From IMG/VR virus record IMGVR_UViG_3300028901_000183: a stretch of DNA of 7,146 nucleotides; one strand, written 5' to 3'. The position numbers and the translations under genes were made by a program. Below the pieces are notes generated by a model. That model was not told where the DNA came from. It was given only the letters and a program-made list of their open reading frames with translations, and searched no databases. The stretch comes from a virus. This document shows, piece after piece, positions 1 through 5,359 of this stretch; positions within the stretch are counted from its first letter, which is position 1, and each line of letters starts with the position of its first letter.

Positions 1-141
1 CATTATGCGCGACGCCGCTTGGAACGTTCCGGCATGAGGAAGGCCGGGAAAGCGGCCCTTGCGGCCTGTCCGGCCCGCGACCGGCGCGGCCAGCCGGAGG
101 CGCGAGACCGGCGCGGCCCGTGCGCCGTAACGCTTCTGTGA
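1..141. repeat. Terminal redundancy, copy 1 (identical to 7006-7146)
   Basis: Base-by-base comparison: cattatgcgcgacgccgcttggaacg...gtgcgccgtaacgcttctgtga occurs at both ends of the window with no mismatch. Confidence 0.97.
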
Positions 142-284
142 CCGGCCCGAGGACTCTCACTGCCACACGCCGCCCGCCGCACAAGATATCCGCCGCCTGT
201 CGCGTCGCACACCGTGGCCCGATCACAGGCAGTCGGTTGGTTAGGGGGATGGGTCGGCTGGGCCGGGGGGAAGGCCGGGCTTGG

Positions 285-366
285 GCCGGACGGCGGAGGC
301 CTCCAGCTCGCAATCCCCCGAAGCCGTGCGCGGCGCGGGCTTGGGCCTTGGCGGCTGGAAGGCCTC
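285..366. repeat. 82-bp GC-rich hairpin-forming repeat, copy A
   Basis: gccggacggcggaggcctccagctcgcaatcccccgaagccgtgcgcggcgcgggcttgggccttggcggctggaaggcctc matches 662-743 with 5 mismatches in 82. The ends gaggcctccagc / gctggaaggcctc are inverted complements, so each unit can fold into a ~70-nt imperfect hairpin. Confidence 0.9.
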
Positions 367-430
367 GGCCCGCCGGGGCCGGGCCATGGCGGAAGGCGTT
401 TTTGCAAAACAACGCTGTTTTTTGTTGAGT

Positions 431-455
431 TTGGCATGTTCATTGAACATGCCAA
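431..455. promoter_or_regulatory. Perfect 25-nt palindrome TTGGCATGTTCA-T-TGAACATGCCAA. Candidate dimeric protein-binding site or origin/packaging element.
   Basis: The 12-bp arms are exact reverse complements around a single central T (443). It sits in the only AT-rich island of the GC-rich non-coding region. Confidence 0.6.
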
Positions 456-491
456 TCCCTAATCTAGTGCGTTTTTGTTGTCTTGACTGAG

Positions 492-516
492 TTGGCACGT
501 TTAATAAACATGCCAT
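492..516. promoter_or_regulatory. Second, imperfect copy of the palindrome (TTGGCACGTTTA-A-TAAACATGCCAT)
   Basis: 10/12 arm positions pair. The half-site consensus TTGGCA(T/C)GTT(C/T)A is shared with 431-455, centre-to-centre spacing 61 bp. The flanks also repeat: gctgttttttgttgag at 414-429 versus gcgtttttgttgtcttgac at 469-487. Confidence 0.55.
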
Positions 517-661
517 GCCGTATAGTGGTGCAGTTCCGAATTTTTTAGGAGGAAAACAGGGGCGGATGGGCGGAAGGCTTGGAGGGCGCGGGTTCGGACG
601 GTTTTACGGGATCGGCGCGGCCGGGGACAAGATACCCCCGGCCAGGCGCACCAGGGCGGGA

Positions 662-743
662 GCCGGACGGCAGAGGCCCCCAGCTCGCAATCCTCCAAAG
701 CCGTGCGCGGCGCGGGTTTGGGCCTTGGCGGCTGGAAGGCCTC
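662..743. repeat. 82-bp GC-rich hairpin-forming repeat, copy B
   Basis: Direct repeat of 285-366, offset 377 bp, 77/82 identical by hand alignment. It has the same internal inverted termini. Confidence 0.9.
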
Positions 744-758
744 CCTTCACACCCACCG

Positions 759-819
759 AAAAAAACCCGGCAAACCCGCGGGCCCCCCCGCTGCGCGGTG
801 CCCCCCGCGGGTTTGCCGG
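759..819 (-). terminator. Rho-independent terminator of the structural/assembly operon
   Basis: Read on the minus strand: a 16-bp GC-rich stem (819-804 pairs with 767-782), a 21-nt loop, then G + TTTTTTT (plus-strand A-run 759-765). It starts 9 nt after the pI stop codon at 829-831. Confidence 0.85.
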
Positions 820-828
820 ATTTAAGGC

Positions 829-1935
829 TCAAGGAGAAGAAAAGGCCTCAGCAACCGAAGCAGCATCGGAATCTGAAGACTTGGCAAGGCCAGAGCGGGG
901 GGGCGGCTCATGGTGGGGAGTAAGCACGAGGTCGTCCACCGCCCAAATCATCCTAGCAATGCGCCTGACAGAATGCCCGGCGTAGGCAAGCTCCGTGGTG
1001 TTGAGCTTGTGGCCGTCATCCGCAGAAACATAGGCGACACAAGAATAACGGCCATCGTCCGAAAACACGCAAAGCTCACCCGACAAGCGGCCCGGATAGT
1101 CAGGCATAACCGTTGCCTTGGGAGGGTCGGGCTGGCGGGCTGGCTGCGGCTTTGCCACAAGATCGGAAGGAAGAGCCTTTTCAGGAACCGGACTGGCTTT
1201 CACTTGAGAAACGACCGGCTGCACATCAGGCTTGCGGGTAAATGCGCGGTAGATATGAACAAAGGACAGCGTAACAATCAAGATAAACAGAGGAGCCAGA
1301 TACTTGCCAGAAAAGACCAGAAACCGAGTAAAGAAGGAAACTTCAACCTTAGCCATTTCCTGCAATCCAAGGCCCTCAGCAGTATACGACCTGTAGAACT
1401 TAAAAAGGACGGGATCATATTCGCCATCCACCGTATTGGTAGGACGACCGCGGGAAGACTTCCCGGCATAGGTCTTAAGAGTGTAACCAGTACCACCAAT
1501 AACGCGGCGCTTGACTAGGTAATGGCATATCTCAACAGTACTCCTAAGCTTTTTCGAGATTAACAAAGGATTTTGAGTAACCAAGGTTATATCGCAATAA
1601 TATTTCCTATGGCGGGAGAAATACTTAGATACTTCGGTATCGTCAAATTGGTCAGCCGTGAAATGTTCTTGGCACTCGTCAATAATATAATGATACCCGA
1701 CAAGGAATTCACCCGAGTTATTCTGATAAGAAGCCACGTCGTCAAACGATAAATCAGCGAAAAACAGAGTTTGATCCACCACATCACCATAAACTTCACG
1801 CAACAATTCCAAATCCAGAGGAATATTGGTAATAATTTTACGGCCCGATTTTTTCGACAACTCGGGGACAATGTAACGCTCCACACAAAAAATAGTCTTG
1901 CCAGCACCGGCAGTTCCTTCAACCAAGGTGAGCAT
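829..1935 (-). CDS. Zot / pI-family phage assembly ATPase (368 aa from the ATG at 1935)
   Basis: - Walker A GTAGAGKT lies 7 residues after the proposed Met (MLTLVEGTAGAGKT).
- Walker-B-like motif HYIIDECQ.
- One central TM segment (FLVFSGKYLAPLFILIVTLSFVHIY), then a Pro-rich linker and a ~90-aa C-terminal domain.
- It is the last gene of the morphogenesis block.
- The ORF-track start at 1998 is a TTG. The ATG at 1935 lies 1 nt after the upstream stop (TGAtATG). Confidence 0.9.
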   Translation of the reverse strand: MLTLVEGTAGAGKTIFCVERYIVPELSKKSGRKIITNIPLDLELLREVYGDVVDQTLFFADLSFDDVASYQNNSGEFLVGYHYIIDECQEHFTADQFDDTEVSKYFSRHRKYYCDITLVTQNPLLISKKLRSTVEICHYLVKRRVIGGTGYTLKTYAGKSSRGRPTNTVDGEYDPVLFKFYRSYTAEGLGLQEMAKVEVSFFTRFLVFSGKYLAPLFILIVTLSFVHIYRAFTRKPDVQPVVSQVKASPVPEKALPSDLVAKPQPARQPDPPKATVMPDYPGRLSGELCVFSDDGRYSCVAYVSADDGHKLNTTELAYAGHSVRRIARMIWAVDDLVLTPHHEPPPRSGLAKSSDSDAASVAEAFSSP

Positions 1936-1936
1936 A

Positions 1937-2359
1937 TCAGAACGCCAGCTTGCCAATGATGCGCATGACAATATCCTTGCCGTAACGCCAAGTGGCAACC
2001 GTGCCGATAATAGAAAGACCCTCGACGACGCGCAAGGCCGTCAACCACTCGACGAAAGCAGGATCGGACTCGCCAAGTTGCTCCGCAAGAGTCTTGATAG
2101 TCGGGAAGGGTATGTTGGGAGCATTCTGGACATGCTGGGTAAGTGAATCAAAATAATCGGTAATCATGTCATACAAAGCCTCGCCTATCCTATCAATGAA
2201 AAAGTAGAAGATGGCAGGCAAGGCCGCGATAATCTTGGGCCAATATGCCTTAATCAAGGAAATGATTGAAAGCAACAAACCCCGAGTAAGGGTAAAAAAC
2301 CTTATCAACAAAGACCCGAGGGAAACCAGCAAATCAACAAGCAATAACAAATAAGGCAT
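1937..2359 (-). CDS. pVI-like minor coat / membrane protein (140 aa from the ATG at 2359)
   Basis: Strongly hydrophobic N-terminal half (MPYLLLLVDLLVSLGSLLIRFF..., IIAALPAIFYFFI). Its position between the adsorption protein and pI is canonical for gene VI/ace. The ORF-track start at 2380 is a TTG overlapping pIII. The ATG at 2359 follows the pIII stop (TAG 2367-2369) and an AGGTG motif. Confidence 0.75.
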   Translation of the reverse strand: MPYLLLLVDLLVSLGSLLIRFFTLTRGLLLSIISLIKAYWPKIIAALPAIFYFFIDRIGEALYDMITDYFDSLTQHVQNAPNIPFPTIKTLAEQLGESDPAFVEWLTALRVVEGLSIIGTVATWRYGKDIVMRIIGKLAF

Positions 2360-2366
2360 AAGGCAC

Positions 2367-3890
2367 CTAAGTCCTGGCAATCCTAAAAGAAACGGCTATG
2401 GCGAACAACATAATCGCATCGCCGAAAATACGCACATAAGGACACACGTCAATTTCAACAGTGCCTTTAATCGGAACAGCAACAACAAAAGGCGCAGGAC
2501 ATCCCGAAGAGGAGCCGGACGTGGGGAAAAAACCACGCAGGTAATCAACGAACCCGCTGGCATCAACAGAATCCTCGACAGCTTTCAAGAACCTGTCAAA
2601 CGCATCATGCGAACGCTGACGAGCCGGAGGCATCCTTTTATCAGAGGGCAACTGGGAACTACCGTTACCGTTACCGTTACCATTGCCGTTGCCATTGCCG
2701 TTACCATTGCCGTCAGAATCCAAATCACCCGTACCTTGGGGATTGTCACCAACACCAGAACCGTTATCGACGCCCTTACCATCAGCAGAACCCGTCAACG
2801 CATCCTTCACGCGCTGTAAGGTGCTTTCCTTGGCGCAATCGGGACAATCACCCTTTCCATCGGAACCCGTAACGCCCGATCCTGTACCGGGAACCGCGCC
2901 TGTTCCCGTGCCTGTTCCCGTGCCCGTGCCCGTGCCCGTGCCCGTGCCCGTGCCCGTGCCGGTGCCTGTTCCCGTACCGGTGCCGGTGCCTGTTCCCGTT
3001 CCGGTGCCGGTGCCGGTGCCGGTGCCTGTTCCCGTGCCGGTGCCTGTTCCCGTGCCGGTGCCGGTGCCGGTACCTGTACCCGTGCCAGTGCCTGCTCCCG
3101 TGCCAGTGCCTGTTCCCGTGCCGGTACTACCCGAACCAGAGGTGCCAGTACCCGTGCCAGTTCCCTTATCGCCCGAACCATTGCTAGTAGAATCACCGCC
3201 TGATCCAGAAGTAGGCACGGTATCACCACCGCCGTTTGTTCCTCCTGAACCCGGACTAGGCAAAGGATCGCTATAACTGTAATTGGAACCGGGAGGCAGA
3301 ACACAAGGGGAACCGAAGGGAATACAAGTATTGGAAACAGGGCAGTAATAACCATTACCGCACACGTTATCCCTAGGCAGAGTGCCTTTGGTATCAGGCA
3401 CCGGATTTAAGGGCGGATAATGACACGAATTGTCGTCAACACTCCAAAACCCCGGCAAAGAACAATCAGACTGGGAGCTACACGCCGCCGATTGAGAAGA
3501 AATGGGAGGGCATTCCCTTGGGGGATTACAGGAACCATCACGCGCTTGATATTTACCGGAAGGACAGGCCGGAACATTGGTACACATAGAACCCGACAAA
3601 ACACCGCCATTAGGGCAGGAATAGGCGGCATATAACCTTTGGCCCGTAGAACAATTTTGAGGATTGCCGAATGTAATCAAACCGGGATTGCCCGGCGTGG
3701 CCGTCGCATTGGCAGAACCGCATTTTAAAGACGCACACCATGAGCCGCAGTATGCGGACAAGGCATCAAAAGCAGATAAGTAATTTTGCCCGCCATTGAC
3801 GTTATAGGTAAGAAGAGGAGAATAATCCGAAGCACTGGCTACAACAGGATTAAATATGAGAAGGAAGCAGAGGGATATGAAAAATTTCAT
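2367..3890 (-). CDS. pIII-like adsorption / minor coat protein with repeat linkers (507 aa from the ATG at 3890; alternative GTG at 3917)
   Basis: - Signal peptide [20 protein letters not shown]|SDY.
- N-terminal ~180 aa carries 16 Cys.
- A Gly/Ser/Thr low-complexity region includes an uninterrupted (GT)32.
- A short CPDC-containing segment is followed by (GN)8.
- C-terminal hydrophobic anchor ([20 protein letters not shown]).
- This domain / Gly-rich linker / domain / membrane anchor layout is that of filamentous-phage pIII. Confidence 0.85.
2898..3164 (-). repeat. In-frame Gly-Thr dipeptide repeat within the pIII-like gene
   Basis: Hexanucleotide units GGN-ACN read on the minus strand. Residues 252-340 of the 516-aa ORF are GT-rich, and residues 276-340 are a pure (GT)32G. 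The DNA is mostly synonymous-variant, but there are perfect tracts (CCCGTG)x7 at 2917-2958 and (CCGGTG)x4 at 3001-3024 on the plus strand. Confidence 0.95.
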
Positions 3891-3964
3891 AAGGTGCCAA
3901 TACCGATACAGAAACACAATCCCGATATGGCACCCAGAATCAAGAAAGCTACATGCGCATCCAT
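3887..3964 (-). CDS. Possible 25-aa hydrophobic mini-protein ([25 protein letters not shown])
   Basis: Hand translation; the ORF is below the ORF-track length cutoff. Its TGA overlaps the pIII ATG at 3890 as ATGA, which suggests translational coupling. It consists of a single TM-like segment. There is no convincing Shine-Dalgarno motif. Confidence 0.3.
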
Positions 3965-3970
3965 AGTATT

Positions 3971-4008
3971 AAAAACCTAATCATGATATGGGGCATAACA
4001 CCCCATAT
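3971..4008 (-). terminator. Hairpin after the major coat gene; possible partial terminator or attenuator
   Basis: Minus strand: GATATGGGG-tgttatg-CCCCATATC (4008-3984), followed 10 nt later by TTTTT (3975-3971). It lies 18 nt downstream of the pVIII stop. The position is analogous to the post-gene-VIII terminator of Ff phages. The U-tract is displaced, so it is weak at best. Confidence 0.35.
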
Positions 4009-4025
4009 CGTCTAACACAAAAAGA

Positions 4026-4250
4026 TCAAAGCGCCCGGATCAGACGCTTGCCCACACGCGCCGCCGCGATCAACGCGGCCAAGCCTATGGCCGATCCGGC
4101 AATGGCCGAGCCCGTTGACGAAATGGAACCCACATCCACGTTATCGTTGATAAGCTGGCCCATGGAAGTCGCAGTGGCAGAAGCCATGCCGGAGGCGGCG
4201 GAAGCAGCCAAAGCAAAGGCCGCAGTCAAATAGCGTTTCAGGTTTTTCAT
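4026..4250 (-). CDS. Major coat protein, pVIII-like (74-aa precursor)
   Basis: - GGAG lies 5 nt upstream of the ATG at 4250. The ORF-track start at 4256 is a GTG.
- Signal peptide MKNLKRYLTAAFALAASAASGMASA|TAT.
- The ~49-aa mature peptide has an acidic N-terminus (NDNVD), a Gly/Ala-rich hydrophobic core (AIAGSAIGLAALIAAA) and a basic C-terminus (RVGKRLIRAL).
- This is the textbook inovirus coat design. Confidence 0.9.
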   Translation of the reverse strand: MKNLKRYLTAAFALAASAASGMASATATSMGQLINDNVDVGSISSTGSAIAGSAIGLAALIAAARVGKRLIRAL

Positions 4251-4302
4251 GGTCACTCCAAAATTAAAAAGTTTGTTTTGTTTCGTGTTTCGCGGAAATC
4301 AG

Positions 4303-4443
4303 TCACAACATATTGAAGAATTTCACCCCCTGCCGAATGGCCCAACCAATCAACCAACTAGCAACAGGCAAAGACCAACCGGCCAAAAACAAGTCGGTCG
4401 CATCTTCGCCCGTCATTCCAAAGGTATATTGAAAATCATACAT
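4303..4443 (-). CDS. 46-aa hydrophobic mini-protein, a candidate pVII/pIX/Psh-type minor virion protein
   Basis: Hand translation; below the ORF-track cutoff: MYDFQYTFGMTGEDATDLFLAGWSLPVASWLIGWAIRQGVKFFNML. It has an acidic head, one Trp-rich TM segment and a basic tail. It starts 8 nt after the stop of the upstream 144-aa gene and sits directly upstream of the coat gene, as genes VII/IX (Ff) and psh (CTXphi) do. Confidence 0.6.
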   Translation of the reverse strand: MYDFQYTFGMTGEDATDLFLAGWSLPVASWLIGWAIRQGVKFFNML

Positions 4444-4451
4444 AACCCAAC

Positions 4452-4886
4452 CTAACCGTGTTTCTTAAAAGACGGCACATTAGATGAAGAATTAACCGAA
4501 GCTTCGGACTTGTCATGCAGGACTTCACCAGTAGACGAATCGACAGAGACACCATCAATACCCGGATCAACCACAAAGCCGGACAAGACAACCTCAGTAC
4601 CCCGGCCCCGTTGCTGGACGAAAGTATCAAAATCCCATTCAAGGACGCCGCCCTTGACATGGTGCCGGAAACAAGCCAAAAGACGGGGATAAAAGTCTTC
4701 GGACACGGGAAGCTCCACAGTGGAAAACCCCGCCCCCTCCCGGTTAAACCAACCCTTCTCACCTGCCTTGCCCTGATGGACGGGAACAAACGGCGACAAC
4801 GCCAAAACCCGGTGCATGGAATACGCATTGCCGCTCTCGCGGGAATTGCCGTAGGTATGGACAACAGACAAAATCTTGAACTTCAC
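4452..4886 (-). CDS. Candidate ssDNA-binding protein (pV-like), 144 aa
   Basis: GTG start with GAGG 7 nt upstream. It lies between the replication module and the coat genes. The N-terminus MKFKILSV..TYGNSRESGNAYSMH resembles, from memory, the f1 gene V strand-plus-DNA-binding-wing segment MIKVEIK..TTRSGVSRQGKPYSLN. It has a Ser-rich, probably disordered C-terminal tail. The functional call is positional plus weak motif resemblance. Confidence 0.6.
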   Translation of the reverse strand: MKFKILSVVHTYGNSRESGNAYSMHRVLALSPFVPVHQGKAGEKGWFNREGAGFSTVELPVSEDFYPRLLACFRHHVKGGVLEWDFDTFVQQRGRGTEVVLSGFVVDPGIDGVSVDSSTGEVLHDKSEASVNSSSNVPSFKKHG

Positions 4887-4962
4887 AAAGACACCTCACA
4901 GGGAAAAAGACGGCCCTTTCAAAAACCCGGAACGGCAAGGCCGCGTGTGCCGCGCCGGGGCT

Positions 4963-5349
4963 TCAAGACTTGGAACGGGCAGCAAGGACAAGACCGCGCA
5001 CCCGGCGGGCATACGCGAGGTACTCCCCTTCGTTGCGGAAATGCAAAGGCTTCGAGACACGGCCAGAAGAAGAACACGCCAAAGGAAACGGCAAGAGAGA
5101 CTCGGAACAATCAAGGGAAGGCCCGGACGGAACCGACCGGACGGAGGCACCCTCCCGGCAAAGCGAGGAAAACGGACGCAAGACGTAATTCTCGGCAGCA
5201 GTCCAATAGCCATGCTGGAGACGGCGCAAGGCGCACGACCTGTGGGCAGGGCGGGCCAGCCAGTCATGAGCCGGACAGCCTTGGCAATCCTCACGCGGGC
5301 CGGACGGCGCCTTGCCAGTAAAAGTATGCGGGCCAGAATACCCAGCCAT
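4963..5349 (-). CDS. Hypothetical 128-aa Cys-rich protein (in the position of CTXphi rstB)
   Basis: The ATG at 5349 lies 10 nt after the rep stop and is preceded by AGGGGG (TAGGGGGTTCGCCATG). It is the only frame in the 4887-5359 gap with a protein-like composition (D/E/Y/W/H/F/N all present; 6 Cys including CQGC). The other long frames here are R/P/G-rich with almost no acidic residues. I recognise no family. Confidence 0.45.
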   Translation of the reverse strand: MAGYSGPHTFTGKAPSGPREDCQGCPAHDWLARPAHRSCALRRLQHGYWTAAENYVLRPFSSLCREGASVRSVPSGPSLDCSESLLPFPLACSSSGRVSKPLHFRNEGEYLAYARRVRGLVLAARSKS

Positions 5350-5359
5350 GGCGAACCCC

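Follow-up and report, generated by a model that had tools for sequence, protein, structure and literature searches.

In CTXphi, two inverted attP sites with centres of 12 bp and 5-7 bp lie between ctxB and rstR; they fold on the (+) single-stranded DNA and recombine at dif through XerC (PMC4246890). The cargo slot of CTXphi (zot - ctxAB - attP1/attP2 - rstR), together with the CTX-type integrative mobile elements exploiting Xer (IMEX; RS1, YpfPhi and CUS-1Phi), is the nearest counterpart of a region in the inovirus genome IMGVR_UViG_3300028901_000183 of IMG/VR, whose 7,146 nt are called the window below. The last morphogenesis gene (zot/pI), accessory DNA, inverted dif-like hairpin sites on the (+) single strand and a repressor gene follow one another there as in CTXphi. 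The accessory DNA, contained in the first 828 nt of the window, is the subject of this analysis; unlike the cargo of CTXphi, which is a toxin operon, it is non-coding, 67% GC and without homologues. We read this block as a lineage-specific accessory insert of foreign composition in the slot between zot and attP, in which an island with two dyads would be the sole part likely to be active and the GC-rich arms around it would be passengers. We place the probability of this reading at roughly 0.45, somewhat below even odds.

Positions 1-141 and 7006-7146 of the window are the same DNA, a circular-contig overlap of 141 nt, so the genome is a circle of 7,005 nt represented by a circularly permuted contig, and the real non-coding region therefore comprises 6794-7005 plus 1-828, about 1.04 kb. 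It is the sole large non-coding region of the genome, with the block as its larger part. Since pII, the structural genes and zot are all encoded on the minus strand, the minus strand of the window is taken as the packaged (+) strand. An integrated copy was found on a 19.4-kb contig (L001), where window positions 1..7010 match 7298..289 at 100% with unrelated DNA on both sides. The right prophage junction reads GTCGCGCATAA|TGGGGG TTATGTAAAAT and the left one AATTTCGTGTAA|TGCAAGCGGCC TTATGTAGAAA, and the host dif rebuilt from them is ATTTCGTGTAA-TGGGGG-TTATGTAAAAT (whole: ATTTCGTGTAATGGGGGTTATGTAAAAT). The crossover occurred at the border between XerC arm and centre in the dif-like site with the 11-nt centre (window nt ~1-5). 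Because of these junctions, window coordinate 1 is the Xer crossover point and nt 1-16 are part of the attP hairpin, not of the block; as coordinate 1 is thereby the XerC crossover of a double-dif attP, the block fills the zot-to-attP cargo slot. The block proper extends from 17 to 762, between the attP arm and the zot terminator (763-823).

For the attP hairpin, folded as packaged strand (6915-7030), the predicted energy is -49.4 kcal/mol (z = -9.9 against dinucleotide-preserving shuffles, the comparison used for all folding z-scores below). Its architecture recurs in 25 relatives, in which the distal stem covaries. As in CTX-type IMEX (PMC4246890), one site has a short centre (6 nt) and the other a long centre (11 nt), the prophage junction is at the XerC side of the host dif, and no integrase gene was seen in the phage. 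Of the two sites, the one that contains the junction has the 11-nt centre, which would be expected to be inactive as double-stranded DNA. The position of the junction is as expected for the folded single-stranded route, and an irreversible integration of single-stranded DNA by host XerC/XerD, as in CTX-type IMEX, may thereby be indicated indirectly. Unlike CTXphi, the spacer between the two sites measures 21 nt instead of about 90 bp, and the replication protein is pII (PF05144). The slot and the integration system are of a known kind, that of CTX-type IMEX; what is unusual is confined to the DNA that the slot contains. The original prediction, made from the letters of the window without database searches, had likened the position of the block to that of ctxAB, and the likeness is borne out by the paired inverted dif-like sites that adjoin the block, by the repressor that follows them and by the prophage at the host dif. 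No further dif-like pair was found in the genome, and a co-integrated IMEX, which would be marked by an extra dif-like site at the zot side of the block, was rejected as a candidate since there is no such site.

Several minor observations concern the attP region. Two shorter contigs from other samples (L003 and L004) start, like the window, exactly at the XerC crossover, the pattern that would arise if the assembly graph branched where a sample contains the circular as well as the integrated form. A fragment at 1-270 of L001, which codes for a transposase-like helix-turn-helix and has repeated GACATT(T/A)CTACTTAGCC ends, stops short of the host XerC arm by ~10 nt; it resembles an insertion sequence beside dif, which probably made the contig end there. 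Adjoining the attP arm, positions 17-32 (= 7022-7037) contain a 10-bp perfect palindrome, GGAACGTTCC, within TTGGAACGTTCCGG. A sub-threshold Rfam match to Spot 42 small RNA at 6891-6995 (minus strand; 35 bits, gathering score 80) was set aside, being the attP and terminator hairpins.

The composition of the block is anomalous. With 66.9% GC, against 52.6% in the coding part (829-6793) and 54.4% in the whole genome, it is the GC-richest 828-nt stretch of the circle, in agreement with the very high G+C predicted beyond the pI terminator; the underlying hand counts (53/60 G+C at nt 61-120, 21/60 at nt 6481-6540) were reproduced exactly. At 74% and 71% GC, the two arms differ in composition from the phage (54%) as well as from the host flank (57.5%), and the GC of the slot content is about 20 points higher than that of phage and host. 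A comparable level is likewise reached by a 200-nt stretch of the g3 Gly-Thr repeat (74%).

We also concur with the earlier view that the block is non-coding, which every test applied upheld: it has no period-3 signal, and no family or homologue was found for any of its open reading frames (ORFs). Spectral power at period 3 is not significant in the arms (p = 0.30 and 0.63) but is so in zot and pII (p < 0.002), and GC is 0.67-0.77 at all three codon positions, while that of host genes is 0.42-0.48 at position 2. ORF 515-985 matched only itself among 5.8 billion protein clusters, ORF 3-455 (minus strand) had no match among 1.84 billion representatives, and the block ORFs had none in Pfam, PHROGs or PADLOC.

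pII has hundreds of homologues, and those with an organism name all belong to Methylococcales; judging from these hosts, that of the present phage is probably an uncultured member of the same order, and the proteins encoded in the host flank fall in singleton clusters. Our set of relatives consists of 42 loci with pII at 52-74% identity and two zot relatives (L005 and L006), and the block is absent from all 44. When the non-coding region was compared with the 42 pII loci by BLASTN, nothing matched nt 10-828, and only two pieces were conserved, 6822-6868 and the attP hairpin. Of the pII relatives, 15 have an 800-nt stretch ahead of attP whose GC is that of the genome (0.40-0.52, against 0.41-0.51), and the slot of the relatives (0.4-1 kb) is occupied by other, unrelated DNA and by small ORFs, among which is a HicB-like antitoxin. 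For g6 and zot, the sole matches are the two short contigs L005 (zot 54%) and L006 (48%); downstream of zot these have a RepA_C gene or an integrase and no block, and in L005 just 14 nt of non-coding DNA follow zot. By these matches the genome is a mosaic of a pII/attP/origin module (5360-7021), 52-74% identical to phages in Methylococcales genomes, and a g6/zot module (829-3917) of other ancestry, with the block at their junction.

The conserved piece beside attP seems to hold the origin. The hairpin pair in it is 82-95% identical in 34 relatives, even where the adjoining repressor gene is unrelated; its first hairpin, including the loop GTAAGTAGTAC, is near-invariant across 20 aligned relatives, and its second stem covaries (GTACCA/TGGTAC, GTCTCA/TGAGAC and GTCCCA/TGGGAC). 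It is probably the (+) origin or nick site of the pII family. The block had earlier been proposed to be an oversized origin, a proposal at odds with the finding that the only non-coding elements conserved together with pII (20-34 relatives) are this hairpin pair and the attP hairpin, both outside the block.

Nor could a source of the block be traced elsewhere. Megablast of the whole window against GenBank phages gave no match, zot searches of IMG/VR and of GTDB genomes yielded no close relative, and BLASTN gave no match in GenBank phages or PLSDB plasmids. Exact and gapped patterns of the repeat unit had no match in IMG/VR or in JGI metagenome contigs, the latter a weak negative as that collection evidently lacks the samples of this phage. 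The palindrome pattern had no match in IMG/VR, and its match in metagenome contigs was discarded as chance, being in a single contig of 28% GC with no other similarity. The phage itself is identical in at least three JGI samples and seven SRA samples, in both circular and integrated forms, and an identical zot protein is found on eight contigs.

A striking property of the block, according to the original prediction, was its structure, and here most of the claim did not hold. The 82-bp unit described in two copies is present (77/82 identical) and extends to 90 nt. Its ~70-nt hairpin is indeed predicted, but is not more stable than in shuffled sequences (z = -1.4, +0.06, -1.0 and -1.4 for the units as single-stranded DNA in 96-nt windows), and the T302 to C difference between the copies breaks one stem pair. 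The arm 17-276 gives z = +0.9 as single-stranded DNA and both arms z = -0.7 to +0.1 as RNA; repeat units and GC-rich arms, which were the grounds for calling the block structured, thus fold no better than shuffles (z from +0.9 to -1.4). A structured non-coding RNA locus, one of the functions envisaged, is likewise disfavoured by the lack of folding excess as RNA and by an Rfam search, which gave no match in the block at E<=1 and, at E<=5, just chance matches of microRNA type on the island palindromes. Folding stands out in three elements only, namely the zot terminator (755-830, z = -4.8), the pair of palindromes in the island (425-520, z = -5.4) and the attP hairpin. The anomaly is real, but what looks like structure can mostly be put down to composition. 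The case also calls for some caution, for high GC alone yields long ORFs and impressive hairpins, and shuffle controls remove most apparent structure here.

The arrangement of the repeats was only partly as described. The two copies do flank an AT-rich island, but not symmetrically (gaps of 28 nt and 88 nt), and the 13-bp direct repeat GACCGGCGCGGCC is present at 79 as reported, while its second copy begins at 106 and not at 105. Outside the 90-nt core, a gapped alignment of the arms is no better than shuffles (25/300 reach its score), indicating no longer diverged duplication. The short motifs GGAAGGC and CGGCGCGG are not enriched in the block over Markov shuffles, leaving an iteron-like reading unsupported, and no tandem array was found. 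On direct reading the repeat units have no AAC...GTT cores of the integron attC kind (RYYYAAC/GTTRRRY), FtsK-orienting GGGNAGGG motifs are not found in the block, and no tRNA or tmRNA was found. Plus-strand positions 244-285, next to repeat copy 1 on its upstream side, contain a cluster of G-quadruplex motifs (GGGGGATGGGTCGGCTGGGCCGGGGGG...); shuffles average 0.6 such clusters per block.

The island is the part of the block that does depart from chance. It contains two 25-bp palindromes, P1 and P2 (Table 1), and part of the difference between them is a paired, symmetry-keeping change (TTCA/TGAA to TTTA/TAAA). Their four half-sites are restricted to the island, with no equally good match elsewhere in the genome; no good copies occur outside the island, including the pII/repressor promoter. 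Such a pattern is characteristic of sites recognised by their dyad symmetry, either an operator on double-stranded DNA or a hairpin on single-stranded DNA, and in one of these two capacities the island is probably functional. Between the divergent pII and repressor genes, at 6409-6459, there are two 24-nt direct repeats of the form TA(C/T)ATGTCA...GTTACAT, which are probably repressor operators and differ from the island palindromes.

The location, limits, accessory status and non-coding nature of the block are established by these results; beyond them, we infer the following course of events. Illegitimate recombination may have brought the block, like a moron, into a slot that tolerates insertions, and the 90-nt internal duplication would have arisen later or have been present already on arrival. 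P1 and P2, phased by 61 bp (~six helical turns), would be the target of a dimeric DNA-binding protein while the genome is double-stranded, and the bound protein would control weak outward transcription into the GC-rich arms, on the plus strand towards the zot hairpin and on the minus strand across attP as far as the terminator at 6921-6893. The GC-rich arms are probably spacer or passenger sequence. The block resembles phage morons, units that stand on their own between genes and deviate in composition, in that its composition deviates from both phage and host, terminators bound it (two minus-strand terminators, 823-763 and 6921-6893, bracket the region), an AT-rich control-like island lies inside, and it stands where two modules meet and is lacking in relatives. 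Unlike morons, it lacks a credible ORF, and none of its candidate promoters comes up to consensus thresholds.

Several points weigh against this reading. A sigma-70 scan of 1-1000 on both strands gave no promoter above threshold, so transcription from the island is conjectural; the best candidate, TTGACT-17 nt-AAACAT, scores 8/12 and overlaps P2. No protein that would bind the dyads came to light, and the half-sites are unlike the repeats of the pII/repressor intergenic region. As no donor sequence was found, composition is the one ground for a foreign acquisition. Since all eight contigs are identical, they offer no population variation or conservation by which constraint could be tested. Finally, the 90-nt repeat is 91% identical while its flanks have no significant similarity; the repeat itself could be under selection, which the accessory-insert reading leaves unexplained.

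Among the other explanations, the most probable by a small margin is that the block is neutral filler, that is, GC-rich DNA captured by illegitimate recombination in a slot that tolerates insertions and without function, whose repeat and palindromes are historical accidents. The lack of homologue, coding signal, arm structure and short-motif enrichment is what such filler would show; the slot varies in every relative, and filamentous virions tolerate extra length. We nevertheless find it rather unlikely, because a perfect 25-bp palindrome with a symmetry-keeping second copy would be hard to retain without selection, and because the element is identical in all the JGI and SRA samples mentioned, both circular and integrated.

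It is also unlikely, in our judgement, that the block provides single-strand cis functions on the packaged strand, with the island hairpins (perhaps also the repeat units) as (-) origin and the hairpin after zot as packaging signal. The comparison that suggests this is with the intergenic region of the Ff phages (M13/f1/fd), which is likewise large, non-coding and located after the last assembly gene, with a long terminator hairpin first and more hairpins thereafter. In Ff the packaging hairpin directly follows the last morphogenesis gene, and the block, in the only large non-coding region of its genome, has the same position. The palindrome pair and the zot hairpin are much more stable than their shuffles, and the change from P1 to P2 keeps base pairing. 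Moreover, as the structural module is of different ancestry, a packaging signal peculiar to it would not show in the pII relatives. However, no relative has any part of the block, and in two of them (L029 and L038) the cis functions fit within a few hundred nt around the attP and origin hairpins; the short non-coding stretch after zot in L005 also speaks against such a signal. In contrast to the Ff region, a distance of ~1 kb that includes attP separates the block from the origin-like element that is conserved with pII; the arms and repeat units have no structural excess, and the block is unconserved. The composition, too, suggests a recent foreign origin, which would be unlikely for essential elements.

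A further possibility, which we consider improbable, gives the repeat the main role: the block would be a self-contained non-coding accessory cassette undescribed in inoviruses, with the conserved 90-nt repeat as its functional unit. Two variants are conceivable. The paired 25-bp dyads might mark a protein-controlled locus making regulatory RNAs from the GC-rich arms, or the block might be a new type of complementary-strand origin or packaging element brought along with the foreign structural module.

It is very unlikely that the block encodes one or two small Arg/Gly/Pro-rich proteins on the plus strand (ORF 249-428 and ORF 566-985), the 90-nt repeat being a paralogous coding segment. ATG 566, which comes directly behind the island, is preceded by AGGAGG at a distance of 13 nt, gene callers predict a 156-aa ORF, and both repeat copies are open in the same plus-strand frame, in which the fewest changes occur (three amino-acid changes in seven differing codons). 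The same ratio of 3/7 is, however, reached in one minus-strand frame and is not significant, and besides the missing period-3 signal the GC at codon position 2 is 0.75. ORF 566-985 was judged spurious, since it runs through the zot terminator and then 157 nt antisense into zot, consists of Gly, Arg, Ala and Pro for 62% (hand count of the translation) and has no homologue among the 5.8 billion clusters or in Pfam, PHROGs and PADLOC. Least credible of all is the capture of host repeats (proposed originally as REP-like elements), with the 82-90-nt units as elements like repetitive extragenic palindromes or bacterial interspersed mosaic elements (REP/BIME) or like miniature inverted-repeat transposable elements: the unit is a GC-rich imperfect palindrome in more than one copy, as in REP/BIME, but it is longer (82-90 nt against 20-40 nt), its two copies are both direct and have neither terminal inverted repeats nor target duplications, none was found outside the phage, whether in the 9.2 kb host flank or the 288-nt left flank of the L001 prophage, in pattern scans of IMG/VR and JGI contigs or by BLASTN in plasmids and phages (a search that did not extend to the host genome itself), and host intergenic DNA has only 42-57% GC.

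The slot between zot and attP, which houses the cholera toxin genes in CTXphi, is a variable cargo site also in an environmental, methanotroph-associated family of dif-integrating inoviruses, and the attP architecture in 25 Methylococcales-associated inoviruses extends the CTX-type IMEX to relatives in methanotroph genomes. In the present phage the slot is filled, in place of genes, by 0.8 kb of non-coding DNA that has no homologues. Should the island prove to be a control element or a single-strand origin, the block would be a compact and tractable case of filamentous-phage cargo other than protein.

Table 1. Features of the block, the attP region and the remaining genome, in window coordinates
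Feature	Position	Strand	Remarks
Left GC-rich arm	17-394		1-394 = 74.4% GC; no ORF support, period-3 signal or folding excess
Two 16-nt repeats, CG(C/A)GACCGGCGCGGCC	76-91, 103-118	+	Third, looser copy at 607-622
Direct repeat copy 1	277-366	+	90 nt; predicted imperfect hairpin, not better than shuffles
AT-rich island between GC-rich arms	395-565		42.7% GC
Palindrome P1, TTGGCATGTTCA-T-TGAACATGCCAA	431-455		Perfect 12+1+12 dyad, 25 bp
Palindrome P2, TTGGCACGTTTA-A-TAAACATGCCAT	492-516		25 bp; centre 61 bp from centre of P1
AGGAGG, 13 nt, ATG	547-568	+	Opens ORF 566-985
Right GC-rich arm	566-762		566-828 = 71.5% GC
Direct repeat copy 2	654-743	+	90 nt; 82/90 (91%) identical to copy 1; start-to-start 377 nt
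Intrinsic terminator of zot/pI operon	763-823	-	~20-bp stem, then T7 run; right slot boundary
zot/pI assembly ATPase	829-1935	-	368 aa; PF05707
g6-like gene	1937-2380	-	
g3-like gene	2367-3917	-	Long Gly-Thr repeat
Coat-like gene	4026-4256	-	
Possible single-stranded DNA-binding protein	4452-4886	-	
Replication protein pII	5360-6391	-	PF05144/PF05155
Helix-turn-helix repressor-like gene	6461-6793	+	
Conserved hairpin pair	6826-6868	-	Outside block; probable pII (+) origin
Second terminator hairpin	6893-6921	-	T7 run; just past attP
attP(+) hairpin	6922-7021	-	100 nt; two inverted dif-like sites; nt 1-16 = 7006-7021
Site a, GCCGCGCATAA-TGCGCC-TTATGCATAAA	6925-6952		6-nt centre
Site b, GTCGCGCATAA-TGCAAGCGGCC-TTATGTAGAAA	Reverse complement of 6974-7021	-	11-nt centre

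Two further repeats are found in the g3-like gene. Its Gly-Thr linker is formed by 18 tandem copies of a 12-nt unit (2833-3173; 74% GC) and is clearly coding, and a second repeat, of Asn-Gly type, is located at 2662-2721.

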